From NCBI GenBank assembly GCA_963825135.1, contig CAWGRW010000009.1:992001-1056000 (forward strand): DNA of 64,000 nt. The letters run 5' to 3'. This DNA is from an uncultured bacterium (GTDB lineage Bacteria; Desulfobacterota_D; UBA1144; Nemesobacterales; UBA2774). Position 1 is the first letter of the stretch. Each line of letters begins with the position of its first letter. A program made the position numbers and the translations under genes. Under the pieces are notes generated by a model. That model was not told the DNA's origin. It saw only the letters and a program-made list of their open reading frames with translations, and did not search any database. This document shows positions 15,156-60,972 of this stretch, one piece after another.

Positions 15156-16157
15156 ATGGATAATGAAAACACGGCAAGGAATGAGGGTACGGCCGCAAGA
15201 CCTGACAAGCTGGCTGCACTTCAGGACGCTATGGCCGCACGCATAATAGGACAAAAAGATTTGATCCGCAGCATGCTTGTCTGCCTGCTCTGTGACGGGC
15301 ACATGCTTATCGAGGGTATGCCCGGGCTGGCAAAGACCACGGCGGCGAAGACGTTGTCCGAAGCCCTTGAGGGCGAGTTCCATCGCATTCAATTTACCCC
15401 CGACCTGCTGCCTTCCGATCTCATCGGCACTGACATATATATACAGGAGACGGGCGAGTTTTCTTTCCGCAAGGGGCCTCTCTTCAATAACGTGATTCTG
15501 GCTGACGAGATTAACCGCGCGCCTGCCAAGGTGCAGTCCGCCCTGCTGGAAGCCATGGAAGAAAAACAGGTCACGGTTGGCCTCAAGACTTACAAGCTCC
15601 CTGATTTCTATATGGTTCTGGCCACGCAAAACCCGATTGAGCATGAAGGCACTTACAGCCTTCCGGAGGCGCAGCTTGACCGCTTCCTCATGCACGTGGT
15701 TCTCGACTATCCGAATCACGAAGAAGAACTCGAAATTCTAAGGCTCGACGAGGCGCTGGAAAAACAGAAAGGCACAATGACTGCGCCTGCCCCCGCCATT
15801 AAACAGGACGATATTTTCAAGGCCCGGAAAGAAGTGGCGGCCCTGTACATGGACGACAAGCTCAAGGACTACACCGTTTCTTTGGTAAGCGCCAGCCGCC
15901 AGCCGGAAAAATACAGCGAAAAGCTCTCTCAATGGATTCAATACGGGGCTTCGCCGCGAGCCACGCTGGGCATTGTTCACTGCGCAAAGGCGATGGCATG
16001 GCTTCAGGGCGATAGCTACGTCTTCCCGCATCATATTCAGGAGGTCGCATCCAATATCATGCGGCACCGAATTATTCCGACATTTGAGGCCGAAGCAGAA
16101 GGCGTTTCACGGGATCAAATCATTGCACACCTTCTGGAAGTCGTGGCCATACCGTAA
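15156..16157 (+). CDS. moxR: MoxR-family AAA+ ATPase
   Basis: EGMPGLAKT, RIQFTPDLLPSD, ADEINRAPAKVQSALLEAM, LPEAQLDRF. Confidence 0.96.
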   Translation: MDNENTARNEGTAARPDKLAALQDAMAARIIGQKDLIRSMLVCLLCDGHMLIEGMPGLAKTTAAKTLSEALEGEFHRIQFTPDLLPSDLIGTDIYIQETGEFSFRKGPLFNNVILADEINRAPAKVQSALLEAMEEKQVTVGLKTYKLPDFYMVLATQNPIEHEGTYSLPEAQLDRFLMHVVLDYPNHEEELEILRLDEALEKQKGTMTAPAPAIKQDDIFKARKEVAALYMDDKLKDYTVSLVSASRQPEKYSEKLSQWIQYGASPRATLGIVHCAKAMAWLQGDSYVFPHHIQEVASNIMRHRIIPTFEAEAEGVSRDQIIAHLLEVVAIP

Positions 16158-16168
16158 CGGAGACAACA

Positions 16169-17104
16169 ATGCTTTATCCTGAGTTCGAAACACTGCTGAA
16201 GCTGGGATACAGGGCGTCGAATCTGAATCTGATGTCGCAGCGCAGGGTGCGCTCTATCGTATCCGGTGACCACCGCTCCCCTTTTCGCGGGAAGGGGCTG
16301 GATTTCGAAGAAGTGCGGGATTATGCGCAGGGAGATGATGTCCGGAATATCGATTGGCGGGTAACCGCGCGCACCGGCAGGCCGCACATAAAGCTCTTTA
16401 CCGAGGAGCGCGAGCGGAGCGTTCTGATCTGCACGGATGTAAACCACACGATGCGTTTTGGAACGCGCGGGACCTTCAAATCCATACGGGCGGCAGAGGC
16501 AGCGGCGCTCTTAGGTTGGGCGGCGAGCCGGGAAAACAACCGGGTCGGGGGCTCCTTTTTCGGTAACGTGCCGGATGGCATGATGTTCCTTGACCCCGTG
16601 CGTACGCGCCGCTCGCTCTGGCGCATCCTGAAACAGCTTTGCGACCGGGGGGATTATCACAGCGATCCCGTTCAGCTGGAAGATCATTTGCGATATCTGA
16701 ATAAAGCTGTTCCGTCGGGCGGACTATTCTTCATCATCAGCGATTTCATATCGATCACGGCTAATCTGAAAAAGAGGATTAGCGATCTGCACCGTAAGGC
16801 CGACGTGGTTCTTGTTGCGGTGAACGACCCCGCAGACAAATATCTGCCGCCGGTGGGTCCCTTGATCTTCAAAGACAGGAATAATGAAACCGTAACCATT
16901 GATACATCCGATAAAAAAGGCGGTAGAGCCTATGAACGGCTCTGGGCTGAGAACCGCAAGTTGCTTGAAAATACAGTCAACTCTCTCGGGCTGGGTTATC
17001 TGTCTCTGACAACGGAGGGCGACGCTTACTTCGATCTGGCAAACGGTCTGAAGAGGCTCGGCAGTAAAGGAGGCGGCAATGGACGACCTGCTTTCGCAGC
17101 TTAA
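16169..17104 (+). CDS. DUF58 protein
   Basis: GKGLDFEEVRDY..GDDVRNIDWRVTAR, EERER. Confidence 0.95.
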   Translation: MLYPEFETLLKLGYRASNLNLMSQRRVRSIVSGDHRSPFRGKGLDFEEVRDYAQGDDVRNIDWRVTARTGRPHIKLFTEERERSVLICTDVNHTMRFGTRGTFKSIRAAEAAALLGWAASRENNRVGGSFFGNVPDGMMFLDPVRTRRSLWRILKQLCDRGDYHSDPVQLEDHLRYLNKAVPSGGLFFIISDFISITANLKKRISDLHRKADVVLVAVNDPADKYLPPVGPLIFKDRNNETVTIDTSDKKGGRAYERLWAENRKLLENTVNSLGLGYLSLTTEGDAYFDLANGLKRLGSKGGGNGRPAFAA

Positions 17105-17546
17105 GGACATCAGGGGAATCGACCCCGTGAGCTGGTGGCCGCCTGCGCCGGGCTGGTGGCTTGCACCCGTCGTCGTGATCATACCGGCCGTGATCTTTTT
17201 GATCCTGCGCCGCCGCAAGCTGGCTTATGAAAGGAGCTGGCGGGCTGAAATACGCAATGTGTTTTTAGAGCTGCGCCGGAATGAAAACAAGAGCTTCAAA
17301 CAACGGGCAGCCGCATTGTCGGGCTTGCTGCGCGGCCTCGCGATCAAGCGTTATGGACGCAATGCGTGCGCCGGGCTGCAAGGCAAAAACTGGCTTATAT
17401 GGCTGACGAAAAACGATCCCGGCGGTTTCAGCTGGGATAAGGAGGGCGCCCTGTTGATAGAAGCTCCCTACTTGCCGGAAGACGGGGTCCCCGAGGTTCG
17501 AAACTGGGGCGCCCTGCTGGACGCCGCGGAAAGGTGGATGAAATAA
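17079..17546 (+). CDS. DUF4381 protein
   Basis: QLKDI...PVSWWPPAPGWW followed by a TM; standard slot in the operon. Confidence 0.9.
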   Translation: MDDLLSQLKDIRGIDPVSWWPPAPGWWLAPVVVIIPAVIFLILRRRKLAYERSWRAEIRNVFLELRRNENKSFKQRAAALSGLLRGLAIKRYGRNACAGLQGKNWLIWLTKNDPGGFSWDKEGALLIEAPYLPEDGVPEVRNWGALLDAAERWMK

Positions 17547-17547
17547 G

Positions 17548-18567
17548 ATGTTCAAATTCGCGTGGCCATGGATGGGATTGCTGCTTATTTTGCCGCTTGC
17601 CGTGAGGCTGTTGCTTCCCGCGGTGCAGCGTAAAGCATCTTTGCCGATTTTACGTTTCCCCCACATGGAGGTTCTGAAGAACTCCTTTGCCGCATTCTCT
17701 CCCGAGGGCGCGAAGTCGGGCCGTCTGTTTATAATTCTTCTCTCCTTACTCTGGCTTTGTCTCGTGCTGGCGTTAATGCGGCCCGAGACCGTGGACCAGC
17801 TGACCGAAGTCGAAAATCAGGGGTACGATATCATGCTCGCGGTTGATCTTTCCGGTTCCATGCGCGCGCTCGATTTCTCGGAAGGCAGCGAGCGCGTCGA
17901 CAGGCTGGACGTGGCAAAGAGGGTGGTCGGGAATTTCGTCGAGGACAGGAAAAACGACCGCATAGGACTCGTCCTGTTTGGTGATCACGCCTATCAATAC
18001 GCCCCGCTCACGCAGGATACGCATGCGGTGAGCAAAATGCTCGACGAAACGGTCATAAGCATGGCCGGGGACGGAACGGCTATTGGCGACGCTATTGGGC
18101 TCGCAGTTAAGGGCTTGCGCGACAGGCCCGAAAAATCCCGGATTATCATACTGCTGACAGACGGCGAAGACACGGCCAGTTCCATTCCGCCGCTTCAAGC
18201 CGCCAAGCTGGCCAAGGATTACGGCATCAGGATTTATACGATTGGCATAGGCCGCAAGGGTCTTGTTCCCTACCCCGATCGGTACGGGCGGGTAGTCATG
18301 GTGCAAACCAGTCTTGATGAAAAATTGCTTCGGCAAATAGCCGATACTACGGACGGGAGCTATTTCCGCGCCGCTGATTCGAACGCTCTGCAGGAAGTGT
18401 ACAAGCAGATAAACAAGCTGGAAAAAAGTAAAGGTGAAACACGGCAATATCTAATCCGTACCCCGCTATACCGTTATCCGCTCGCCCCGGGGCTCGGCTT
18501 ATTAGCGTTGATAGCCCTGCTGCCGCTCCTCTCGCGGCGGGCCGGAAGGAGACAATATGGATTTTGA
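17548..18567 (+). CDS. BatA-like VWA protein
   Basis: FAWPW N-terminus, DLSGSM MIDAS, TAIGDAIG, LLTDGED. Confidence 0.93.
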   Translation: MFKFAWPWMGLLLILPLAVRLLLPAVQRKASLPILRFPHMEVLKNSFAAFSPEGAKSGRLFIILLSLLWLCLVLALMRPETVDQLTEVENQGYDIMLAVDLSGSMRALDFSEGSERVDRLDVAKRVVGNFVEDRKNDRIGLVLFGDHAYQYAPLTQDTHAVSKMLDETVISMAGDGTAIGDAIGLAVKGLRDRPEKSRIIILLTDGEDTASSIPPLQAAKLAKDYGIRIYTIGIGRKGLVPYPDRYGRVVMVQTSLDEKLLRQIADTTDGSYFRAADSNALQEVYKQINKLEKSKGETRQYLIRTPLYRYPLAPGLGLLALIALLPLLSRRAGRRQYGF

Positions 18568-20593
18568 TTTTCTTCCCGCCCCTTTCCATTTTGCCGAACC
18601 CGTCTGGCTATGGGGCCTGGCCCTTGTGCCGCTTATCTGGTTATCGTATATCCTTTTTTATCGCCGGGGTGTCCGGACGGCGGGGAGATTAAAGGATTTT
18701 GCTGATGCTCACCTGCTGCCCCACCTGCTGGCAGAAGAAGAGAAGGCCGGAAAGAAACAAAGGCATACATGGCCGGCCCTGCTGGCATGGTCTCTCATCT
18801 GGGCATGCGGCCTGCTGGCGTTAGCCGGGCCCCGCTGGGACTATACCGAGGTCAAAGCATTCGCCCCCGCCCGTGATCTCCTCATCTTGCTCGACTTATC
18901 GAGATCCATGGACGCACAGGATATCAAGCCTTCCCGCCTTGCCCGCGCCCGGCAGGAAATAGAGGACATTCTGAAGGCCTCTCAAGGCACGAGAGTGGGT
19001 CTGATCGCCTTTGACACCGTGCCCCATTTGATTACTCCGCTCACAGACGACAAGGAGACCCTAAACCGCCTTCTGCCCTATATGAAGACCGACCTGGTTT
19101 ATGTACAGGGAAGCTATCTCGCCCCTGCTCTGGAAATGGCCGGACAGATGTTGAAGACGGAAACGGGCGATGAAAAAAATGTTCTGATATTAAGTGACGG
19201 CGGTTTTGATGACGGCGATGCCACCATACTGCAGGCGGAACAAGCTCTCAGATCACAGGGTGTGCGAATCTACGTTATGGGCACGGGGACCGCGCAGGGT
19301 GTGCCCATACCGGACGGTAAAGGCGGCTACATCAAACAAGACGGCACACTGGTTTTTTCCCGTCTCGAAGAGAGCCGATTAAAACGCGTTGCCGGCGACG
19401 GCGGAGGATTCTATGAGCAAGCCGGCTATCTGGGCGACGACACGCAAACGCTTCTTTCCGGAATACAAAGCGTTTCGGCATCAAAACCGGGGGCGGAGAA
19501 AACAACGCGATATTGGGAAGAACGGTTTTACGTATTCCTGCTCCCATTTGCTCTTCTGATCCTTCCCTGGTTCCGTCGTAACGCGGCGTTCCCGGTCGTG
19601 ATTGCGGCCCTTATTCTCACACAGTCCGCACAAGCGCATGCTTTTGACTGGGACAGCCTGTTCCTGAACAAGGAACAGCAGGGTGAAAAGTACGTGAAAG
19701 AAGGACAGTATGACAAGGCCGTCAAAGAGTTTGACGACCCCTACCGCAAGGGCGTGTCACAATACAAGTCAGGGAATTATAAAGCGGCGGCCGAATCCTT
19801 TCAGGCGGCGGACCGCCCTGAGATAAGGACAGACGCGCGCTATAACCTGGGCAATGCCCAGCTCATGAGCGGCCGGATAGAGGACGCTGTCAAGACTTAT
19901 GAAGATATCTTAAAATCGAACCCCGATCACACGGACGCGCAGCATAATCTGGAAATTGCTAAACAGCTTCTTGAAAAGCGGCAGCAGAACAATCAGCATC
20001 AAAAGGACCAAAACAACCAGCAACAACAGGGCTCTCAGGATAGCAAAGAAAATCAGAATAGCCCGCAGAATAATCAGGCGCAAAACCGGCAGCAGGATCA
20101 AAAAGGCCAAAACGACCAGCAGCAACAAGGCTCTCAAGATAACAAAGAAAATCAGGACAGCTCGCAGAATAATCAGGCGCGAAACCAACCGAATGAGCAA
20201 AACAGCCAAGGAGAGGCCGACAGTAAGAACAACGATAAAAACAGTGAAGAACAAAAGCGCCGGGGAGAGGAGTCTTCCGGTAAGCAGGGGGAGCAGAATA
20301 AAGCTCAACAGGCGGAGGAAAATAAAGAGGGTCAGGACACCGAACACGGCGAGCAGCGAGCCGAGGAGCCGGGTAATGAACGTACCGGACAGCCTGATTC
20401 GAAATTCGACGCCGAGAAAGACCAGATGCAATACAGTCCCGAAGCGCAAGAACAAACGGCCAGAACACAGAAGGACATCAATGCGGATCAGTGGCTCAAC
20501 CGAATTGAAAATGATGCGGAGTTGTTCCTGAAAAATAAATTTTATATCGAATCGCAGCGCTACAAGGCTAAAGAAGGTGAGAATCCATGGTGA
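18557..20593 (+). CDS. BatB/BatC-like VWA-TPR fusion with Q/N-rich tail
   Basis: DLSRSM, PSRLARA, TPRs (YNLGNA), low-complexity Q/N region, QWLNRI..D. Confidence 0.92.
   Translation: MDFDFLPAPFHFAEPVWLWGLALVPLIWLSYILFYRRGVRTAGRLKDFADAHLLPHLLAEEEKAGKKQRHTWPALLAWSLIWACGLLALAGPRWDYTEVKAFAPARDLLILLDLSRSMDAQDIKPSRLARARQEIEDILKASQGTRVGLIAFDTVPHLITPLTDDKETLNRLLPYMKTDLVYVQGSYLAPALEMAGQMLKTETGDEKNVLILSDGGFDDGDATILQAEQALRSQGVRIYVMGTGTAQGVPIPDGKGGYIKQDGTLVFSRLEESRLKRVAGDGGGFYEQAGYLGDDTQTLLSGIQSVSASKPGAEKTTRYWEERFYVFLLPFALLILPWFRRNAAFPVVIAALILTQSAQAHAFDWDSLFLNKEQQGEKYVKEGQYDKAVKEFDDPYRKGVSQYKSGNYKAAAESFQAADRPEIRTDARYNLGNAQLMSGRIEDAVKTYEDILKSNPDHTDAQHNLEIAKQLLEKRQQNNQHQKDQNNQQQQGSQDSKENQNSPQNNQAQNRQQDQKGQNDQQQQGSQDNKENQDSSQNNQARNQPNEQNSQGEADSKNNDKNSEEQKRRGEESSGKQGEQNKAQQAEENKEGQDTEHGEQRAEEPGNERTGQPDSKFDAEKDQMQYSPEAQEQTARTQKDINADQWLNRIENDAELFLKNKFYIESQRYKAKEGENPW
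20000..20197 (+). repeat. Two diverged tandem 99-bp (33-aa) units inside the Q/N-rich linker
   Basis: QKDQNNQQQQGSQDSKENQNSPQNNQAQNRQQD / QKGQNDQQQQGSQDNKENQDSSQNNQARNQPNE. Confidence 0.85.
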
Positions 20594-22437
20594 AATATGT
20601 AAGACTGTTTGCACTAATTTTAGTTTTCCTGCCGTTCAGCATGGAGGCGGCTCTTGCAGGTTCTTTTACGGCCAGCGTCGACCGCACGCAGCTCGCTCCG
20701 GGAGAAAGTCTGACGCTCGAGCTTTCCCTGTCCGGCGCGTCGCCGAACGGGAGCCCGGACCTCGGTCCTCTGGAGGAAGCCTTTACTACCTACTCCCAAG
20801 GGCAGTCTCGACAGACCACTATCATCAATACCAGTATTACCTCCAGTATTAACTGGCAGCTTGTACTGATACCCAAGAAATCCGGCGACATAAAAATTCC
20901 GGCCCTCTCCATACAAACGGACGACGGCCCGCTGCAATCTCAGCCCATCGATATAAGCGTTACTAAATCAGCCGGGTTGTCGCAGGAAGGGGCGACCGGC
21001 GGCGACGCCCTTATTGTTACCACGAATGTCAATAACGCTCATCCTTACCAGAACGAGCCGGTTTTATTTACGGTCAAGCTGATTGCCCGCAGGAGCGTAA
21101 GCGACGTCAGCGTCCCTGAATTTAATGTCGAAGGGGCGATTGTGAAAAAACAGGGCGATGCGAAGATATACGACGAGGTATTGCAGGGGGAGCGGGTTAA
21201 GGCTATTGAAGTGCGTTATCTGATCACTCCCATGCAATCGGGCACGGTCAATATTCCCGCTTATGTTTTTCAGGGCCAGGTCGAGTCGGACAGGCAGCCG
21301 AGTGATTTTTTTGGCAGACGCATGCGTGATTCAGGCATATTCGACGATCTCGGAAAGTTTCCGGGTTTTTCTTCCTTCGTACCTTTTGTCGTATCAGGTC
21401 AGGAGATCACTCTTGACGTCAAACCGCCGGCAGCGCAGATGGATCCGTGGCTGCCGTTGAAATCATTGGAAATATCCGATGTCCTCCAAAACCCTGAGGG
21501 CGCTAAAGTGGGAGAGCCGTTAACGCGCAAAATCAAGCTCGTCGCCCAGGGGACCCTCGGCGCAAATCTGCCCGATCTGGAGAGCCGGATTGCTCCGGAC
21601 GGCTCGTTCAGAATTTATGCTGACAAACCGGTGACGGGAGAAAGCTTTAACAAGGATAGTAATACGATAACCGGCTGGCGCGAGGAAAGTTATTCGTTGA
21701 TCCCGCAGAAAAGCGGCAAATTCACTCTGCCGGAAATCAAAGTGGCCTGGTGGGATGTGACAAATAATAAAATCTCCTATGCCACGTCGCCTGCTATAAC
21801 AGTTAACGTTATGCCCGGGCTATCCGGGGACGGAGATAAGAAGGAGAGTGTGAGCTCCTCACAGGCGCAAAAGTCAGAGGGTGCAAAAATCGATGAGCGT
21901 GACCCCTCATCCCTTCCAACGGAAAAAGTAGTCGGCGAAGGGACCGCTCGAACGGTGCTATATGCTATTCTGGCTGCGCTGAGTCTGACCGTCATTATAT
22001 TGGCGTGCGCGGTTTATTATTTGTTCCGCAAGCTCTCCTCGCAGAAGACCGAGAGACCGGACAACTACGATAAGACCACAGTAGGCCCATACGCGGGCGC
22101 CAATCGGTACAAATTATCGGCAGGCGAGATAAGTAGGTGCAAATCACCAGGGGAGTTGCGGAGCTTTCTCCAGACCTATGCCTCCCAGCATTGGGAAACA
22201 CCACGAAACGCGACGTTTCAGAACATGCTTTCAATCCTGAGAAAGCGCGGCGTACAAACCGACGCGCTCGAAATAGAACGGGTTTTTTCCGACCTGGACG
22301 CTTCGCTGTATGCCGGGGGAAACATCGATATCGAAGTGGTCAAGAAGCGTCTCCGGGATATTTTAAAAGCTGTCGACGGGACAATCGCCAAACCGGAGAA
22401 ACAAAAGGAAAAGCTGGGAAGCCTGAATCCGACCTGA
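20587..22437 (+). CDS. BatD-family protein
   Basis: Signal peptide, ASVDR..GESLTL, VGEPLTR, LPEIKVAWWD, C-terminal TM and LNP end. Confidence 0.92.
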   Translation: MVKYVRLFALILVFLPFSMEAALAGSFTASVDRTQLAPGESLTLELSLSGASPNGSPDLGPLEEAFTTYSQGQSRQTTIINTSITSSINWQLVLIPKKSGDIKIPALSIQTDDGPLQSQPIDISVTKSAGLSQEGATGGDALIVTTNVNNAHPYQNEPVLFTVKLIARRSVSDVSVPEFNVEGAIVKKQGDAKIYDEVLQGERVKAIEVRYLITPMQSGTVNIPAYVFQGQVESDRQPSDFFGRRMRDSGIFDDLGKFPGFSSFVPFVVSGQEITLDVKPPAAQMDPWLPLKSLEISDVLQNPEGAKVGEPLTRKIKLVAQGTLGANLPDLESRIAPDGSFRIYADKPVTGESFNKDSNTITGWREESYSLIPQKSGKFTLPEIKVAWWDVTNNKISYATSPAITVNVMPGLSGDGDKKESVSSSQAQKSEGAKIDERDPSSLPTEKVVGEGTARTVLYAILAALSLTVIILACAVYYLFRKLSSQKTERPDNYDKTTVGPYAGANRYKLSAGEISRCKSPGELRSFLQTYASQHWETPRNATFQNMLSILRKRGVQTDALEIERVFSDLDASLYAGGNIDIEVVKKRLRDILKAVDGTIAKPEKQKEKLGSLNPT

Positions 22438-22554: not shown

Positions 22555-22631
22555 TGGTGGAGATGACGGGAATCGAACCCGCGACCTCCGCGTTGCGAAC
22601 GCGGCGCTCTCCCAAGCTGAGCTACATCCCC
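22555..22631 (-). tRNA. tRNA-Ala(CGC)
   Basis: GGGGATG/CATCTCC acceptor stem with G3:U70, anticodon arm CCGCG-TT-CGC-AA-CGCGG, GGTTCGATTCC, encoded CCA. Confidence 0.97.
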
Positions 22632-24161: not shown

Positions 24162-24233
24162 AACTCCACGTAAGTATATAGCATGTCCGTCGAATTAGTT
24201 TCGGGAAATCAGATTGTGAGGGATTTTAGGGCT

Positions 24234-25781
24234 TTACATCCCCTGAGTTGTAACCCTCTTCGGATGCTCTTTCCGCCAGCGGAGCTTGTTAAGCGCGTTT
24301 ACGTATGCCTTCACGCTCGCAACCACTATATCCGTGTTAGATCCCTGGCCCTGGGTAATGACCCCTTCGTCTTCAACCCTTACCGTAACCTCCCCCTGTG
24401 CGTCTATCCCCTCGGTTATAGAGGCGACGACGTAGTTCTCCAGGGTAGGATTGAGTCCGGTGGCTTTGGATACGGCCTGATAGGCAGCGTCCACGGGGCC
24501 GTCCCCGCTCTCGGAGATTGTAACTTCCTTACCGTCTATCAGCAGCTTCACGGTCACGACGGGCTGCATGTCGGACCCGCCCGAATAGTTTGCGGAAATG
24601 AGTTTGTAAAAATCAGACGAGCGGACGAACTCCTCGCTGATCAGGGCTTCGATGTCCTCGTCGAATACGTATTTCTTTTTGTCCGCCAGATCCTTGAACT
24701 TTCTAAACGCGCTCTCGAAGGCCTTATCGTCGAGGAAATACCCGTAGTCCTCGAGACGGTCCTTAAAAGCATGCCGTCCCGAGTGCTTTCCGAGGATAAG
24801 CTTATTCGAGGGAATTCCTACCTCTTCCGGGTCCATGATTTCGTAAGTGATCCTATCCTTGAGCACGCCGTCCTGATGTATGCCCGCTTCGTGAGCGAAG
24901 GCGTTTGCCCCGACTATCGCCTTATTCGGCTGGACGTTCACACCCGTCACCTGGGATACCAGCCTGCTCGTCGGGTACAGCTGCTCCGTGTTGATTCTCG
25001 TCTTGAAGGGGTTACGGTCGTTCCTGACCTTGAGCCCCATTACTATCTCTTCGAGCGAGGCGTTCCCGGCCCTCTCTCCGAGACCGTTGATCGTGCATTC
25101 GACTTGCCTCGCCCCTTCCCTGATCGCGGCGATAGAGTTCGCGACCGCAAGACCGAGGTCGTTATGGCAGTGTACGCTGAGAATAATATCATCGAGGCCC
25201 GGAACTTTTTCCTTAAGCGTCCGTATGATGTACGAAAACTCCTCGGGGACCGTATATCCGACAGTGTCCGGGATGTTTATGATCCTGGCGCCAGACCTTA
25301 CTGCTACATCCACCGCACGGCAGAGGTAATCCAGATCAGTCCTGGTCGCGTCCTCGCACGAGAATTCCACGTTCTCCGTATAGTGCCTGGCGTGTTTGAC
25401 CGCGGTGCTGATGATCTCGAGCACCTCGTCCCTCGATTTCCTGAGCTTATGTTTCAGATGTATATCCGAGGTGGCGATAAAGGTATGTATCCTCGGGTAC
25501 TCGGCGTTCCTGACCGCTTCCCAGCCCCTGTCTATGTCATTGAAGTTTGCCCTGCAGAGACCCGCTATCTCGCACCCGCGTATCTTCTCCGCTATGACTT
25601 TGACGGACTCGAAATCGCCCTCGGAAGAAATGGGAAACCCGGCTTCGATGACATCGACGCCGAGCTTCTCGAGCTGGTGAGCTACCCTGAGCTTCTCTTC
25701 AGCGGTCATACCGCAGCCCGGGGCCTGCTCTCCGTCCCTTAAGGTCGTATCGAATATCTTCACCATGTTGTCGCTGCCCAT
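24234..25781 (-). CDS. leuA: 2-isopropylmalate synthase
   Basis: FDTTLRDGEQ, HCHNDLGLA, GERAGN, HEAGIHQDG, GKHSGR. Confidence 0.97.
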   Translation of the reverse strand: MGSDNMVKIFDTTLRDGEQAPGCGMTAEEKLRVAHQLEKLGVDVIEAGFPISSEGDFESVKVIAEKIRGCEIAGLCRANFNDIDRGWEAVRNAEYPRIHTFIATSDIHLKHKLRKSRDEVLEIISTAVKHARHYTENVEFSCEDATRTDLDYLCRAVDVAVRSGARIINIPDTVGYTVPEEFSYIIRTLKEKVPGLDDIILSVHCHNDLGLAVANSIAAIREGARQVECTINGLGERAGNASLEEIVMGLKVRNDRNPFKTRINTEQLYPTSRLVSQVTGVNVQPNKAIVGANAFAHEAGIHQDGVLKDRITYEIMDPEEVGIPSNKLILGKHSGRHAFKDRLEDYGYFLDDKAFESAFRKFKDLADKKKYVFDEDIEALISEEFVRSSDFYKLISANYSGGSDMQPVVTVKLLIDGKEVTISESGDGPVDAAYQAVSKATGLNPTLENYVVASITEGIDAQGEVTVRVEDEGVITQGQGSNTDIVVASVKAYVNALNKLRWRKEHPKRVTTQGM

Positions 25782-33510: not shown

Positions 33511-33584
33511 TGGCTGGGGCACTAGGATTCGAACCTAGACTGATGGATCCAGAGTCCATAGTACTACCGTTATACTATGCCCCA
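33511..33584 (-). tRNA. tRNA-Gln(CTG)
   Basis: TGGGGCA/TGCCCCA acceptor stem, ATGGA-CT-CTG-GA-TCCAT anticodon arm, GGTTCGAATCC, encoded CCA. Confidence 0.97.
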
Positions 33585-50811: not shown

Positions 50812-51128
50812 TGATGAAAACTTCTCCGATTTAAATTCCTCATTAAGTTACGGGCATTCAAGCCGGATTTTCTCATCTGTGCCTATTGACTTTGGAAGAC
50901 GTTTTTGATTACACTCCTAAACAAAAGAGTGATTAGTAAGCTTATTCGCACGACACTCCGTATCGGGATGTTTCTACGAATTTTAATCCGCTCAATTAAT
51001 AATTCGGCGGCGGAATTGGCCGAAATCCGTTCCGTCACGGTCCCGCTGATGCGAAGTCGGCGGCCGGGAATGCACCATCAGCGTTGCGGTGCTTTCGGCC
51101 AATACTACTAGATCAGTGAGGAGTGCTA

Positions 51129-52558
51129 ATGTCGACACCAAAACCCGTTTTCGTCATTCCGACATACCGTCTGCGCGATGTCGCTGAAACGGTCGAGGCG
51201 TACGACCAGCACTTCCGGCGCAACGGCCATTCCCTCGACTTGATAGTTTTCGACGATTCCAGCGGTGCGAACCAGCAGAAGTACTATCCTCTCCTCGAAC
51301 AAACACGGACGCACAACCCGCTCTATTATGTCGGACCGAAGCAGAAAGAAGAGTTCTTGCATTACTTCTTCGGACGGCTGCGGGACCGCAAGCTGGAACC
51401 GCTGATCCGCAATCTGTTTCGCCCGAGCTACGGCGGGAACCGCAACTATACGCTGATGTACACGCTCGGCGATTTCATGGTCAGCGCCGATGACGATATG
51501 AGACCGATGGCCCTCATGGAGGATAGTCCCGAGACGTTGGAGGATAACGAGGTCTGCCGAGGTAAATTGATGCGTGCCGACTCCGGCGGGTTCACCGAGA
51601 AATCGTTCGACATTCTGGCCGCGTTTTTGGACGTTCTCGGCAAGCCGGTGCGGGATATCCCCGCCAACCACGAACGCGGCGAACTGCTAATGGACACTGC
51701 GATGGACTTAGAGACCAACACAAGCAGAGGGTTTGCGCGAGAAAACTCTCTCCTCCTGCAGACCGGAACGATCCCCGACACAGCCATTGTCAAGATGGCC
51801 CAGACGTTCCGGTCAGGGACCAACGACATCGACGCGCTCGATTTTGTCGAGATGTTCCTGGAGGACCCCACGCAGGTCCACCTCGACGACCTGAACGAGC
51901 TTTATGTACTGGTCAACTTCCGGCCGGCAGTCACGAAGCAGAACTGGCGTATGGACTGTGGAGTGGCAGCATACGACAACGAGTTCGGCTGCCGCCGTTC
52001 TTCCCGACTCGGCTCCGGTTCGAGGATTACATTTATCGGTTGTGGATTCAGCAAGACGGACTGGCGTCGGCGCACGTCGATGCAGCCCAACGCCACATCA
52101 AAAACAACTACATGCGAAATCCGCTGGCGGCGGAAGTTTTCAACGAAGAAGTCGCCAACCTCCTCAAGCGCAAGATCAAAGACAGCGTGTCGAATCGGGA
52201 CGAATTGAGCATCTCGTTCGACTACGACGGCGACGTAACTACCGAGGACAGTGAGGGCATCCTGGAGCTGATTACCGGGCTCCACGGTCGTATCTTGGCC
52301 GCCCAGACGGAAGCCGGGCCGGAACGCAGCCAGGCTCTCCAGTCGTTCGCAATCAGCCTGGAGCGCAGCTTCTATGGCTTTGAGCCTGACTTTTTTCAGC
52401 AAAACCTGATCCGCATTACCGACGACGTGATCAGCCAGTTCAAAGGATCGTTAGAACTCTGGCCCGCGCTTGTGGAAATCTGCTATCTGCGGAAGCACCG
52501 GGTGGGTTTGCCGCACCAAAGGGTTAAGAACCAGACCCGAGTAAAAGATGTTATTTAG
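51129..52558 (+). pseudogene. Uncharacterised GT-A-like protein of about 476 aa with one frameshift near 51989; pseudogene or sequencing error
   Basis: GAGGAG RBS; FVIPTYR, VFDDS, GGNRN, SADDD; adding one base gives continuous FGLPPFFPTRLRFEDYIYRLWIQQ. Confidence 0.75.
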
Positions 52559-52773: not shown

Positions 52774-52803
52774 TAAAGTTGATTGGGGCTTCAGATATTG
52801 AAC

Positions 52804-53253
52804 ATGACCGAATCAGAATTAAAAAAACTGTTAGTAAACAAGCTGCCCGGCGTAGATAACCACGGCGAGGTGGTGGAAGAAATTGGAGAAGGCAGCGTCC
52901 GCATCCGCCTGCCGTTTAAAGAGGAGTATATGGGCGAGGACATCTGGGGAAAATCGGGCTCCAGGGTCTTCTCCGGCCCTGTAACAATGGGTCTCGCCGA
53001 CACCTCCATGTATGCGTGCGTCCTGTCCGCGTTCGGGCAGGGAGTAATCCCGGTCATCGTTACCCTAACAATAAATTTCCTGAGCCCCGTAAAAGCGGCC
53101 GATCTTGTTGCGGAATCGAGAATTATAAGACGTGGAAAAAACCTGGTATATCTGGAGACATATCTCTTTAGCAACAGTATTCAGAAACCCGTCGCGCATA
53201 TAACCTCGACTTATGCAATACGTGACAGGGAAAGAGCCGATGTTGGTGATTGA
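52804..53253 (+). CDS. PaaI-family (hotdog fold) thioesterase
   Basis: FSGPVTMGLADT, TLTINFLSP, IIRRGKNL, VAHITSTY. Confidence 0.88.
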   Translation: MTESELKKLLVNKLPGVDNHGEVVEEIGEGSVRIRLPFKEEYMGEDIWGKSGSRVFSGPVTMGLADTSMYACVLSAFGQGVIPVIVTLTINFLSPVKAADLVAESRIIRRGKNLVYLETYLFSNSIQKPVAHITSTYAIRDRERADVGD

Positions 53254-53287: not shown

Positions 53288-54190
53288 ATGCTCTATAAAA
53301 ATTTTACGCATGCCAAAATCGAAACCTCGGGCGCTCTGATAAACCTCGTACACGGGGGGAAAGGAAAGCCCCTACTTCTGCTGCACGGATACCCGGAGAC
53401 GCACGCGATGTGGCACGCTTACCGCGCCAAGGCTCGCGGAAAGACCTTCCACGTCGTATGCATTGACCTCCGAGGCTACGGCGACAGCTCGAAGCCCGAG
53501 TCCACACCTGACTACTACACTTATTCAAAGCGCGCGATGGCGAAGGATTGCATCGAGGTGATGGAGGCCCTCGGATATAAGAGATTCTTCGTAGCGGGGC
53601 ACGACAGGGGCGCGAAGGGTCACGCACCGGATGGCGCTCGATTATCCGGAGCGCATAGAAGGCCGCCTGCGTCATGGACATCGCCCCCACGCATACGATG
53701 TTCAAGCGCGCCGACAAGGCGTTCGCAACAGGCTACTACCACTGGTTCTTTTTAATCCAGCCCGACGGTCTCCCGGAAAAAATGATCGGGTGCGACCCGG
53801 AATACTATCTGAGAGAGAAGCTAAGGCGGTGGAGTGCGCCGGGAGCGCGGTTCGATGAGAATGCGGTAAGGGAGTACGTGTGGTGCTTCAGCGACCCCGC
53901 CGCCATACACGCGAGCTGCGAGGATTACAGGGCCGCAGCTACAATCGACCTCGTTCACGACGAGGAAGATTTCAGGTAAGAAGATCGCGTGTCCGCTGCT
54001 GGTGCTCTGGGGTGCAAAGGGGTTCATCAACCGGACGTACGATGTAATCGACACGTGGAGGGAAAAAGCCGTAGACGTAAGTGGGAATACGCTCGACTGC
54101 GGCCACTTCCTCCCCGAGGAAAAACCGGACGAAGTATGCGACGAGCTCATTAAATTCTTCTACGTCGATATAACCCTTGGTCAATTCTGA
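53288..54190 (+). pseudogene. Fluoroacetate/haloacetate dehalogenase-like alpha/beta hydrolase with about six +1 insertions
   Basis: [41 protein letters not shown] spread over four ORF-track fragments. Confidence 0.88.
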
Positions 54191-54655
54191 TCGGTAAAGA
54201 AATTCAAGGCCGGAAATAGCCCCCGCGTCCTCCGTCCTGTACCTCAAATATTCCTTTCTCAGAAACTCCTCGAAGCAAGTCTGCGTCTCTATGGCTTCTC
54301 TTTCCGAGTACGCGAACAATACTACGAGGTGGCGGCTCTTCAAAGCGCCGGTCTTCTCGCGAATATATTGATATTCTTTCTCGGATAGCCCGTAGGAAAT
54401 CCCGAACTCGGGAGTTTCATCCGTAGTAAAGAATCCGTGGTTGCTCATTTTCTCGGCGACGGCGTCGCACATGGCTCTCCCGAATCTCTTCGTCTCTTCC
54501 ACATCCTTTCTGAATAGACCGCCTATGAGCGCATATACGCCGCAATAGACCCTGGAATGATTATTCCTGATTATCCTGCATTTTGTATCCGGCAATTCCA
54601 CAAGATAAAGCGGCGATGGAGATATCGCGTTTAAGATAATGTCCTTTACGGTCAC
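53972..54655 (-). CDS. Hypothetical protein resembling the GatE insertion (GAD) domain; 3' end uncertain
   Basis: GAGGAGG RBS before [48 protein letters not shown]. Confidence 0.65.
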
Positions 54656-54852
54656 CGGAATTACCTCCTCAGCTTATTCATGCATATGCATATAAATATT
54701 ACACGGGGGAACTTCCGCATGCAAAGCCATTTGACGAGAATGCCGAATAATCCCGCCATGGGGAGCCTCGCAAGGCTTCATTCGGATGGTCTCTAGTATA
54801 ATCGGTCTTATATCCAGTTGTAGAAGGAAAGCTCCAAAAGCCCGCATTCCGA

Positions 54853-58078: not shown

Positions 58079-58110
58079 CTATCCACAAGTTGTTGATGGA
58101 TTGTGGACAA
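58079..58110. promoter_or_regulatory. DnaA boxes upstream of and overlapping the dnaA start
   Basis: CTATCCACA (58079-58087) and TGTGGACAA (58102-58110), opposed. Confidence 0.8.
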
Positions 58111-59641
58111 GTTGTCTTTCGATTTGGAGGAGCAGAGGAAATTGGCCGCTAAAAGAACGCCCCTGAAGCATAATCTCAGAACGCTTTTTACAGAAAAAAA
58201 GGATGACGGAAAGGGGCTCGAGTTTTTTATAGGACAGTCTTTCCGTCCCACAAAATCACACCAGAGAAACGAGGACGCCGCCGAAAAGAACATAGACTGG
58301 GACGGTGTTCTCGAAAGAATTAAAAAGAAATCCAACCCCCAGGTATTCTTCTGGTTCGCGCCGCTCAGACCTGTATCCGAAACAGAAGATTCGATCACAC
58401 TCCGGGCGAACAGCGAATTCGACAAAGACTGGATCAACAACCACTATCTCGAATTCATAGGGGACACGATAAGAGAGGTCCATGGAAAAACCTTATCGGT
58501 AATAATAGTTACGGAACAGGACAAATATTCCTCTCAGGAAGATAAAAAAGCGGGAGAAGAGCCCAAAGAATCGAGAGAGTCAGGACCCGGCAAGCTATAT
58601 ACGGGGTTTTTAAACCCGAGCTATTCTTTTGACAGGTTTATCGTCGGGCCGAGCAATCAGTTCGCGCACGCGGCTTCGACCGCGGTTGCAAGGAAACCGG
58701 GCGAAGCCTACAACCCTCTCTTTATTTACGGCGGGGTCGGCCTCGGAAAAACCCACTTGATAAATGCAATCGGCAACTACATCGTAAAAGCGACGTCCAA
58801 CATGGCCAGGGTTTGCTGCATCTCGGCGGAACATTTTACCAACCAGGTCATAAACAGCATCAAGTCAAACAAGATGGAAGAGTTCAGAAACAGGTACAGG
58901 TTCGGGTGCGATATACTCCTGATAGACGATATACAGTTCATCGCCGGGAAAGAGAGCACGCAGGAAGAGTTCTTCCATACGTTCAACACGCTCTACGAAT
59001 CCAAAAAACAAATCGTGCTCACAAGCGATAAGTCTCCGAAGGACATGTCCTACCTCGAGGAAAGGCTGAGGTCGAGGTTCGAGTGGGGTCTCATTACGGA
59101 TATTCAGCCCCCGGAAACGGAGACGAGGATTGCAATAATCAAGAACAAGGTCGAGGCGGGCGGGACTCCGCTGCCGAACGATGTAGCGCTGTACCTCGCT
59201 CAAAACACTACTTCCAACATCAGAGAGCTGGAAGGCACTCTAACGAATATAATCGCCCACGCCAAGCTGCTCAAAACGGAAATTACACTCGACCTAGCGA
59301 AGGAAGTGCTCAGAACCATTCTGAAGCATCAGGACAAAAAGTTCCTGAGCATTGAGAGCATCCAAAGAGAAGTCGCGAATTTTTACAGCTTGAAGGTTCA
59401 GGATATGAAATCCAATAAGAAACAGAAGAACATCTCTCTGCCGAGACAGATTGCGATGTATCTCTCGAGAAGATATACAGGGGCCTCCTATCCGGAGATA
59501 GGGGAGAAGTTTGGCGGAAAGGATCACTCGACCGTCATCCACGCCGTAAAGAAAATAGAACAGAACCTGGGCCAGGACCCGTCGCTTGAAAATACGGTGA
59601 AATCGCTCTCGAGAAAAATCGAGGGTCTCATAAGTGGATAG
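58103..59641 (+). CDS. dnaA: Chromosomal replication initiator DnaA
   Basis: YNPLFIYGGVGLGKTHL, IDDIQF, QEEFFHTFN, RLRSRFEWGL, GGKDHSTVIHA. Confidence 0.98.
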   Translation: MDKLSFDLEEQRKLAAKRTPLKHNLRTLFTEKKDDGKGLEFFIGQSFRPTKSHQRNEDAAEKNIDWDGVLERIKKKSNPQVFFWFAPLRPVSETEDSITLRANSEFDKDWINNHYLEFIGDTIREVHGKTLSVIIVTEQDKYSSQEDKKAGEEPKESRESGPGKLYTGFLNPSYSFDRFIVGPSNQFAHAASTAVARKPGEAYNPLFIYGGVGLGKTHLINAIGNYIVKATSNMARVCCISAEHFTNQVINSIKSNKMEEFRNRYRFGCDILLIDDIQFIAGKESTQEEFFHTFNTLYESKKQIVLTSDKSPKDMSYLEERLRSRFEWGLITDIQPPETETRIAIIKNKVEAGGTPLPNDVALYLAQNTTSNIRELEGTLTNIIAHAKLLKTEITLDLAKEVLRTILKHQDKKFLSIESIQREVANFYSLKVQDMKSNKKQKNISLPRQIAMYLSRRYTGASYPEIGEKFGGKDHSTVIHAVKKIEQNLGQDPSLENTVKSLSRKIEGLISG

Positions 59642-59850
59642 GAAGTGAATAACTATGTCGATAGATTTGTGGACAAGTCGGGAATTCGCGCTTTGAGAAA
59701 AATCCTGTGGGTCGATGTGGATAACTCGCCCTTATCATCAACAGGCTTGTGAACATTAAAATCCTTGTAGTTTAGATGAGTTCGAGTACTTTTCAACAAT
59801 TTCACAGGCCCTACTATTATTACTACTATATATATATAATATGATTCAAT
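59642..59850. other. oriC unwinding region between dnaA and dnaN
   Basis: TGTGGACAA 59668, perfect TGTGGATAA 59716, several degenerate boxes, tandem boxes 59790-59806, GGCCC, CTACTATTATTACTACTA DnaA-trios 59811-59828, then a TA run. Confidence 0.92.
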
Positions 59851-59871
59851 GTATAAGCAGGAGTAGATACT

Positions 59872-60972
59872 ATGAAGTTTAAGACGCAAGCAGAAAACTT
59901 TTCGCAAAAACTGGGCCTCGTACAGGGAATTTCCGAAAGGAGAGCAACGATGCCTGTGCTCTCCCATGTTCTTCTGAACGTCGACAAAAACAAAATAGGC
60001 ATTTCAGCCACGGACCTCGAAACGACAATGAGCACGTGGTCCCCCGCTGAGGTATCGAAGGCGGGAAGCATCGCGGTTCCGGCCAGGAAGCTCTACGAGA
60101 TAATAAAAGAGCTTGAGACGGGTGAAATAGAAGTCGAGGAGATCGGGAACCATTGGGTGGAGATCAGGTCAAGCTCCGCGGTATTCAAGATCGCGGGACT
60201 TCCGAGCGAAGACTTTCCGATCATCCCGGAGCTCCATTCGGATAACCTTTTTTCGGTAGAGAGCTCTCTGCTCGAAGAAATGATTTCAAAGACCATTTTT
60301 GCGGTATCTCCGGATGAGCTGAGGCGGAACCTCGCAGGTATTTTTTTTGAAGAAGCAGGCAGCAAGAGTCTAAGGCTCGTGGCGACAGACGGCCACCGCC
60401 TCTCGTTAGTCGAAAAAAACATAGACAGCAGAGTGAAGTTCGGCAAGGGATTCGTTGTGCCGAAAAAAGGTGTTGCAGAATTGAGAAAGGTGCTTAAGCT
60501 CTCGGACAAGGTAAGGATTGGGGCCGGCGACAACTTCTTCATGGCCGAGGGGGAGGATATCATATTAATCGCGAGACTCATCGACGCCGATTTTCCTGAC
60601 TACCGTCAGGTTACTCCGGAAGTCACAAAAGCGACCCTCACGCTGGACAAGAACGAGTTTCTGAGGGCGCTCAAGCGGGTATCCATCCTCTCTTCGGAGA
60701 AGACCAGGAGCGTAAAGTTCATCATTAACAGCGGAGGCATGACGATGATCTCCGTCTCTCCCGAGGTGGGCGAGGCGAAGGAGACTGTACCGCTCGACTA
60801 TTCGGGTGAGCCGATCGAGCTCGGGTTCAATGCACGATACCTGATGGATGTCCTTGAGGTAATTAACAAAGACAGAGTTCAGATAGGGCTCATCGACGAG
60901 CTTAGCCCCGCCGTTCTTAGACCCGAGGGCGATGAGGTTTATCTGTCCGTGATAATGCCTATGAGGGTTTAG
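59872..60972 (+). CDS. dnaN: DNA polymerase III beta clamp
   Basis: ATDLE, VATDGHRL, FPDYRQV, GFNARYL, IMPMR. Confidence 0.98.
   Translation: MKFKTQAENFSQKLGLVQGISERRATMPVLSHVLLNVDKNKIGISATDLETTMSTWSPAEVSKAGSIAVPARKLYEIIKELETGEIEVEEIGNHWVEIRSSSAVFKIAGLPSEDFPIIPELHSDNLFSVESSLLEEMISKTIFAVSPDELRRNLAGIFFEEAGSKSLRLVATDGHRLSLVEKNIDSRVKFGKGFVVPKKGVAELRKVLKLSDKVRIGAGDNFFMAEGEDIILIARLIDADFPDYRQVTPEVTKATLTLDKNEFLRALKRVSILSSEKTRSVKFIINSGGMTMISVSPEVGEAKETVPLDYSGEPIELGFNARYLMDVLEVINKDRVQIGLIDELSPAVLRPEGDEVYLSVIMPMRV

Follow-up and report, generated by a model that had tools for sequence, protein, structure and literature searches.

In a 64,000-nucleotide stretch of the genome of an uncultured bacterium (contig CAWGRW010000009.1; hereafter the window), we found a minus-strand gene for a small protein with the fold of the GAD domain, the domain that is inserted in the archaeal Glu-tRNA(Gln) amidotransferase subunit E (GatE) and that also occurs in bacterial aspartyl-tRNA synthetase (AspRS). 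We are almost certain that codons 1-155 of this gene encode a genuine, selected single-domain protein, of the GatE-insertion type by its sequence and belonging to a sparse free-standing family, and that the 72-codon tail of the 227-codon open reading frame (ORF) is a by-product of a one-base insertion and lies outside the functional protein. For the window this means an annotation correction: the gene should be given 155 codons instead of 227, or 158 in this copy if the insertion is removed.

Homology to the GatE insertion domain

An exhaustive representative search over 1.84 billion proteins, with clusters kept at E≤1e-3, gave 84 clusters, 41 of them at E≤1e-10. The profile of these 84 members matched two GatE structures, 2d6f_C and 1zq1_C, with E-values of 2.6e-18 and 2.7e-18, and no AspRS structure was among its 12 matches at E≤10 in the Protein Data Bank (PDB). 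Used as a single sequence, the window protein matched the NCBIfam GatE models PRK04028 (NF003107; E 4.8e-8, residues 22-120 against model positions 289-384 of 630) and TIGR00134 (E 1.6e-7), and in the PDB residues 285-387 of M. thermautotrophicus GatE (2d6f_C, E 2.5e-4). The GatE pattern given in the initial annotation agrees with this actual alignment to 2d6f_C. The scores fall below the cut-offs for full-length GatE membership (31.8 bits against 456, and 30 bits against 319.55).

The AlphaFold2 model of residues 1-155, made from the 84-sequence alignment, had a mean predicted local distance difference test score (pLDDT) of 92.4 and a predicted template modelling score (pTM) of 0.86. Its predicted elements are strands at residues 16-20 and 35-41, a helix at 53-70, a strand at 75-77, a helix at 92-102, a strand at 110-114 and a helix at 118-143. 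In a Foldseek search against the PDB, ranks 1-3 were GatE (template modelling score TMq 0.64-0.66, probability 1.00) and ranks 4-10 were bacterial AspRS chains (TMq 0.49-0.53, probability 0.84-0.99). The homology to the GatE insertion domain that had been proposed was thus recovered by both profile and fold, and its sequence matches assign the protein to the GatE type, not to the AspRS type.

GatE gave the best match in sequence as well as in structure, with the same order of elements, and GatE (2D6F chain C, 1ZQ1 chain C) and the stand-alone protein have in common the motif block G..(R)xG...D / G-(I/F)-F-x-T-D-E-L-P-x-Y-G-I. The setting is different: GatE, an enzyme of ~620 amino acids (aa) that works with GatD, carries the domain between parts of its catalytic cradle, whereas here the domain is a free bacterial protein of 155 aa. 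The GAD domain of bacterial AspRS (PF02938; 1C0A, 4O2D, 4WJ4) has the same fold, but the family profile matched no AspRS structure, the DELPxYG motif lies outside the match to this domain, and, unlike the stand-alone protein, the AspRS domain lies within the class II core.

Searches of other collections gave no usable match in the ESM Atlas, no match by tblastn in the plasmid and phage collections, and none at E≤0.001 in the viral structure library. PADLOC assigned no defence family to the window protein or to four of the five relatives scanned. The family profile also showed a weak match (E 0.0029-0.02) to archaeal Nop5 (3id6_A / 3id5_A), in which family positions 71-144, including the GFFTxDElPxYG loop, aligned with Nop5 residues 185-265; this may be a chance match or a common helix-hairpin-like motif.

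Gene start and true length

All motifs quoted in the initial annotation, including HLVVLFA, were found in the translation of the 227-codon ORF, and the strong ribosome-binding site described there corresponds to a Shine-Dalgarno sequence, GAGGAGG(T). This sequence is invariant in the alignment of the window with the three closest loci, L001, L002 and L009 (protein identity 78-81%), in which the start codon is ATG at the position of the GTG in the window.

The near-length search, in which 223 word-sharing candidates were scored, gave 50 homologues with lengths of 129-165 aa, spanning just 52-71% of the 227-aa query. When the window protein was aligned with 22 homologues, most of them stopped at window residue 155 (...LEFLYE-stop) or a few residues from it, and residues ~165-227 had a counterpart in none of the 22. 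The domain is therefore not inserted in a larger enzyme here, as the conserved 155 residues make up one domain in homologues of this length. In a model of all 227 residues the GAD domain stayed confident, and the pLDDT of the tail was 28-53. The earlier suspicion that the last ~70 codons may be spurious was borne out by the missing counterparts, by the low pLDDT and by the origin of the tail in an insertion, described below.

Over codons 1-155, the ratio of nonsynonymous to synonymous substitution rates (dN/dS) was 0.06-0.12 in all six pairs among the window, L001, L002 and L009, and these loci differ by 53-70 third-position against 10-17 second-position substitutions. By these ratios the gene is under purifying selection.

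One-base insertions and the convergent hydrolase

The ORF overlaps the 3' end of a convergent alpha/beta hydrolase gene (Table 1) over its last 219 nt, with its tail only. In the DNA alignment of the 3' ends, the three relatives read TAC-GAA/AAA-TAG, with TAG directly after codon 155, and the window reads TAC-CGA-TCA-GAA. The stop is lost in the window through an extra base at 54194 together with a TAG-to-CAG change, and residues 156-227 are present because these remove the stop of the family. Were the extra base removed, the window frame would end after 158 codons, as read by eye from the alignment.

Through column-by-column comparison, we found eight window-specific one-base insertions (53417, 53444, 53445, 53616, 53662, 53974, 54162 and 54194) and no window-specific deletion. 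Seven of the eight are inside the hydrolase gene, which is an intact ORF of 292 aa in L001 and L002, is split once in L009 and falls into three frames in the window; the eighth, at 54194, opens the GAD frame, and none lies in GAD codons 1-154. Since the insertion at 54194 stands alongside the seven in the hydrolase, we regard the tail as collateral of a local insertion cluster. The syntenic flanking genes (DsbA-like, ferritin, major facilitator superfamily transporter, dnaA and dnaN) are uninterrupted, with lengths as in L002. The cluster reflects either true decay of the hydrolase gene, as a fresh pseudogene or recent mutation, or a local assembly error.

With eight frameshifting insertions within 53417-54194, an overlap of 219 nt with the hydrolase and the family stop lost in this copy, it might be thought that there is no functional gene here, and that the ORF either is what remains of a transferred gatE in decay or arose by accident antisense to the hydrolase. 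This is contradicted by the data on selection and conservation, and from the comparison of sequences we consider it essentially excluded: codons 1-154 escaped all eight insertions, the eighth falling at the codon 155/156 junction; dN/dS is low; there are 50 full-length homologues; the start and the Shine-Dalgarno sequence are conserved; only the tail overlaps the hydrolase; and no remnants of GatB_N, tRNA-synt_2 or the tail domain flank the GAD ORF.

Table 1. Features of the GAD locus, numbered from the first nucleotide of the window
Feature	Position	Strand	Remarks
GAD ORF	53972..54655	minus	227 codons, GTG start; from the ORF listing
Conserved coding part	54191..54655	minus	codons 1-155, one GAD domain; homologue coverage, dN/dS, AlphaFold2 model, GatE matches
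Non-conserved read-through tail	53972..54190	minus	codons 156-227 and stop; antisense to the hydrolase 3' end
Shine-Dalgarno GAGGAGG(T)	54664-54670	minus	7-8 nt 5' of the GTG at 54655
Window-specific 1-bp insertion	54194		C on the minus strand, codon 155/156; absent in L001, L002 and L009
Convergent alpha/beta hydrolase (Abhydrolase_1)	53288..54190	plus	three frames: 53288-53755, 53674-53979, 54002-54190
Perfect 12-bp palindrome ATGCATATGCAT (candidate operator or 5' element)	54680-54691		25-36 nt 5' of the GAD start, within block 54678-54695

Beyond the hydrolase, a segment of ~95 nt at 52616-52710 matches the 5' end of the hydrolase gene of the relatives with 79-82% identity; as it lies 5' of a 4HBT thioesterase gene (52783-53253), it is an orphan duplicate of the hydrolase start. 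At 51123-52558 on the plus strand, a gene without a Pfam match at E≤0.05 is divided between two frames that overlap (51123-52208 and 52040-52558) and may be another frameshifted gene. The block of 50.1-53.3 kb is missing from L009, where a ComM/Mg-chelatase-like gene directly follows the hydrolase.

Conservation and range of the family

Members of the family are mostly stand-alone proteins of ~100-210 aa, and 79 of the 84 representative clusters are of ≤212 aa (stand-alone or fragments). Conserved in at least 90% of the 84 are G46 (invariant), F48, K50, G59, C63, G74, F75, T77, D79, E80, P82, Y88 and G89, which the AlphaFold2 model places in helix 1, in strand 3 and in the loops that follow strands 2 and 3. 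G46, G59, G74, D79-E80-(L)-P82 and Y88-G89 are common to the family and both GatE structures. The alignment of 23 closer members contained 29 invariant columns, with Cys38 and Cys63 in 23/23, and all residues of the family signature G-L-F-R-K-D ... G-R-x-x-C-D ... N-x-G-F-F-T-(T/S)-D-E-x-P ... Y-G are present in the window protein.

The taxonomic range rests on 20 loci, from a locus scan seeded with motifs of the closer alignment and run over 185,579 species, each represented by one genome; because both seed motifs are stringent, the count of distant members is too low. Six loci belong to Thermodesulfobacteriota/Thermodesulfobacteriales, two to Candidatus Dadabacteria (a class of Thermodesulfobacteriota in the NCBI taxonomy), five to entries named 'Deltaproteobacteria bacterium' and two to uncultured bacteria. 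The remainder comprises one each from Polyangiaceae, Thiomargarita and Verrucomicrobia, and two metagenome-assembled genomes (MAGs) of DPANN archaea, a Nanoarchaeota (L016) and an Iainarchaeum (L017). The initial description as a stand-alone bacterial homologue thus stands for a free protein on a bacterial chromosome, but the family is not purely bacterial.

In a tree of 18 proteins, from which L014, L015 and L019 were left out for their truncated copies, the window protein grouped with L001, L002 and L009 (support 97/98), and the archaeal and other distant rows lay on long, unresolved branches. According to the accessible part of PMC3655853, the Glu-tRNAGln amidotransferase is among the split genes of Nanoarchaeota, which is a caveat for archaeal 'stand-alone' pieces; the L016 protein, however, bears the signature of the stand-alone family.

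The domain itself is already known, and some members have already been tagged GatE-like by automatic pipelines. The name 'Glu-tRNA(Gln) amidotransferase subunit E-like ...' from JGI is on five of the 50 near-length homologues and a precomputed PF02938 on four; NCBI calls four hypothetical proteins. In a literature search, with most subscription journals outside its reach, we found no paper on a free-standing GAD protein.

Fusion proteins

Five of the 84 representative matches were long forms. One of them, P0094 (739 aa), was set aside: it matched in 12 short stretches (query 90-141, E 7.6e-10), its Pfam matches were weak and unrelated only, and it is probably a repetitive or low-complexity artefact. 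The other four are fusions. P0122 (440 aa) is composed of Radical_SAM, SPASM and a C-terminal GAD domain, the GAD part matching the GatE model with E 1.9e-16; in PADLOC it matched viperin-type models solely via the radical-SAM part. P0107 (439 aa) and P0102 (487 aa) are homologues from end to end, with 30% identity, and P0132 (304 aa) seems to be a piece of a protein of this type. In these three, GAD comes after an N-terminal region of ~320 aa with no confident Pfam or NCBIfam match. All four fusions keep the family-specific cysteine. Word-based searches for longer forms gave no match from 260 (single protein) and 7999 (84-row alignment) candidates, which is weak evidence because the representative search did find four long forms.

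Read by eye, and with a weak ANAPC2 match (E 0.024), the first ~75 residues of the P0107/P0102-type proteins are a possible, unconfirmed winged helix. This would resemble the layout of PH0730 of Pyrococcus horikoshii (2P8T), whose C-terminal domain, after a winged helix, is classed as GAD-like. PH0730 was a weak Foldseek match of the window protein (rank 12, E 0.51, TMq 0.39), below the safe threshold, and no sequence similarity to it was found here.

Promoter region and gene neighborhood

An 18-nt block at 54678-54695 is invariant in the window, L001, L002 and L009. Within it, just 3' of a TATAAT-like hexamer, is the palindrome ATGCATATGCAT, of which this is the sole exact copy in the window; it occurs in three of the 20 loci, each time at the same place, and its sequence and position make it a candidate operator or 5' untranslated element of the GAD gene. 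The block is fixed while the sequence and the gene further upstream differ, which suggests an own transcription unit; the GAD gene is probably transcribed on its own, with what by appearance are a dedicated promoter and operator. A consensus promoter scan gave one site (54824-54795), no more than the chance expectation.

The context data are the 64-kb window and loci of 12 kb. With Pfam we scanned three window ORFs and 59 chosen neighbour ORFs, the latter drawn from 19 of the 20 loci, and rescanned at E≤0.05 ten of 12 unassigned locus ORFs, two window ORFs and three fusion proteins. The gene order in the closest clade is ferritin, DsbA-like protein, GAD and convergent hydrolase (window and L002); L001 has an OsmC-like gene directly upstream of GAD, and in L009 GAD is separated from the DsbA-like gene by a TraB/PrgY/GumN gene. 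Among the marine Dadabacteria-like loci, four have a class I methyltransferase gene ahead of GAD, and in six GAD is followed by a gene for a small FUSC_2 membrane protein, then by zinc alcohol dehydrogenase and esterase genes. The distant loci have no common neighbours: secY and an EMC3-like gene are upstream in L016, a MerR-like regulator and dnaB are found in L018, and CHAT/TPR giants in L013. A radical-SAM/SPASM gene lies 1.5 kb downstream of GAD in L017; it is 26% identical to the enzyme part of P0122.

We found no gatD or gatE pieces near the gene, a scan of 52 window ORFs gave no GatD/asparaginase-like gene, and the genomic surroundings are bacterial. Genes for a cognate GatCAB amidotransferase, glutamyl-tRNA synthetase (GluRS) or AspRS are likewise absent from the window and the 12-kb loci.

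Possible function

We propose, by analogy, that the stand-alone GAD protein may serve the Glx/Asx-tRNA machinery in trans, as a docking or steric module, with a probability of roughly one in three. It would dock onto the enzymes of this machinery (GatCAB, non-discriminating (ND) GluRS or AspRS) or onto their aminoacyl-tRNA. We infer this because the fold is known in that setting only and the GatE motif is retained. In both contexts known for the domain, it lies next to the site where the tRNA acceptor end is received. The motif block in common with GatE (TK-S-x-I, G46, G59, G-F-F-T-x-D-E-x-P-x(5)-Y-G) would form the binding surface, and the family-specific Cys63, Lys50 and Phe48 would confer an own specificity or activity.

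In the available part of PMC2943598, the GAD domain of GatE is proposed to form a docking pocket for ND-GluRS and to exclude ND-AspRS sterically; GatDE is described there as binding ND-GluRS without tRNA, with a dissociation constant of 40-100 nM, and as not binding ND-AspRS. A steric clash of the GatE domain with ND-AspRS likewise appears in the accessible text of PMC2330236. In bacterial AspRS, GAD is placed beside the active site, where threonyl-tRNA synthetase (ThrRS) has its editing domain, and it may help to retain Asp-tRNAAsn or destabilise the transamidosome (PMC3367201, in the sections available). The sections of PMC3532385 that are available present an editing role for the AspRS domain as speculation only, and the corresponding text of PMC2811023 gives GatDE as exclusive to archaea.

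The stand-alone GAD proteins show the same evolutionary pattern as AlaX-type proteins, in that a domain internal to an aminoacyl-tRNA synthetase is also found as an autonomous small protein. AlaX, YbaK/ProX and the free ThrRS-editing domains are free-standing homologues of synthetase domains; they are proven trans-editing deacylases with known catalytic residues and have a fold different from that of GAD. We know of no activity for any GAD domain.

Several observations weigh against a docking role. In the source texts as available, what GAD does in AspRS and GatE is modelled, not proven. The window protein alone had no match to Pfam GAD (PF02938) even at E≤1; 34 of the 84 aligned members match it at E≤0.01, so membership of the window protein comes by transitivity through its relatives. 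Phe48, Lys50 and Cys63 are absent from GatE (Ile, Val/Arg and Ala in the two structures), so the surface of the stand-alone proteins does not simply copy that of GatE. Among the 59 neighbour ORFs scanned we found no aminoacyl-tRNA synthetase, gatCAB or other translation-related gene, the one arguable exception being L016 with its secY and EMC3-like genes, and no partner is conserved beyond single clades, the neighbours varying between clades. The fusions are equally compatible with a translation factor and with a binding module of general use. Of the suggested liberated tRNA- or synthetase-interacting module, the stand-alone state is upheld, and the interaction is a possibility against which the missing translation neighbour, the own Cys63, Lys50 and Phe48, and the fusions outside translation weigh.

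Nearly as likely as docking, though unlikely in itself, is a general substrate- or ligand-recognition module outside translation, whose free form would serve a separate enzyme or regulator by delivering or sensing a peptide, cofactor or small molecule, and whose fused forms would do so in cis. The domain architectures of P0122, P0107, P0102 and P0132 speak for it, as do the radical-SAM/SPASM gene near GAD in L017, the variable neighbours, and the gathering of the conserved residues in one predicted, pocket-like loop-helix-loop region (46-50, 59-63, 74-89). The fusions, however, are just four of the 84 representative clusters, and the word-based searches found no longer forms; at 26% identity, the radical-SAM parts of L017 and P0122 leave a specific partnership unsupported, and the only characterised relatives of the domain are parts of aminoacyl-tRNA enzymes.

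The conserved cysteines raise the improbable alternative of a thiol-based stress or redox protein, with a reactive Cys63 (and Cys38 in the Dadabacteria clade) and a gene belonging to an oxidative- or metal-stress regulon. Cys63 is in at least 90% of the 84 members and both cysteines are in all 23 closer ones; the upstream genes of the closest loci encode a DsbA-like thioredoxin-fold protein and ferritin (window, L002, L009) or OsmC (L001); a MerR-like regulator is directly upstream in L018; and the conserved palindrome overlaps the putative promoter. But such neighbours are not kept outside the closest clade, the protein has no known redox motif such as CxxC, and even the four closest loci, in which the GAD promoter block is fixed, differ in their upstream gene, which points to an independent unit.

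Docking of the free protein on the Glx/Asx-tRNA machinery remains our preferred reading. The GAD domain adjoins the active sites of two ancient Asx/Glx-tRNA enzymes, and an autonomous, well-folded version of 155 aa, kept by strong purifying selection, is a clean handle on what it binds outside those enzymes. If it acts on aminoacyl-tRNA or on transamidosome assembly, it would be a new trans-factor in translation quality control; if not, GAD would be a general binding module, which changes how the insertion in GatE and AspRS is read. A more far-reaching version, which we regard as a long shot, is that the free-standing GAD is an unrecognised trans-acting component of indirect aminoacylation, for example by giving the bacterial GatCAB a GatE-type surface for recruitment of ND-GluRS or exclusion of ND-AspRS, or that it represents the free ancestor captured independently by GatE and bacterial AspRS.

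Other features of the window

The window and L002 have ~80-87% nucleotide identity and a common gene order over ~7.7 kb, from which we take the window to be a Thermodesulfobacteriota/Dadabacteria-like chromosome. Bacterial chromosome markers in the window include dnaA/dnaN, a sigma-54 activator, AcrB and a Bat operon; dnaA-dnaN at 58103-60969 indicates that the window is near the replication origin. The Bat aerotolerance-type operon at 15156-22434 on the plus strand is complete (MoxR-DUF58-DUF4381-VWA-VWA/TPR-BatD).

At the Rfam gathering threshold only two tRNAs were revealed in the window, with nothing near the GAD gene, and neither tRNA is linked to it: tRNA-Gln(CUG) at 33511-33584 on the minus strand, in which we read by eye a U1-A72 first pair and an encoded CCA, and tRNA-Ala(CGC) at 22555-22631. 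Two ORFs of ~515 aa, 24183-25742 on the plus strand and 24234-25781 on the minus strand, are exactly antisense to each other; the minus ORF alone has Pfam domains (LeuA-like HMGL / LeuA_dimer), and the plus ORF is a long spurious antisense frame.

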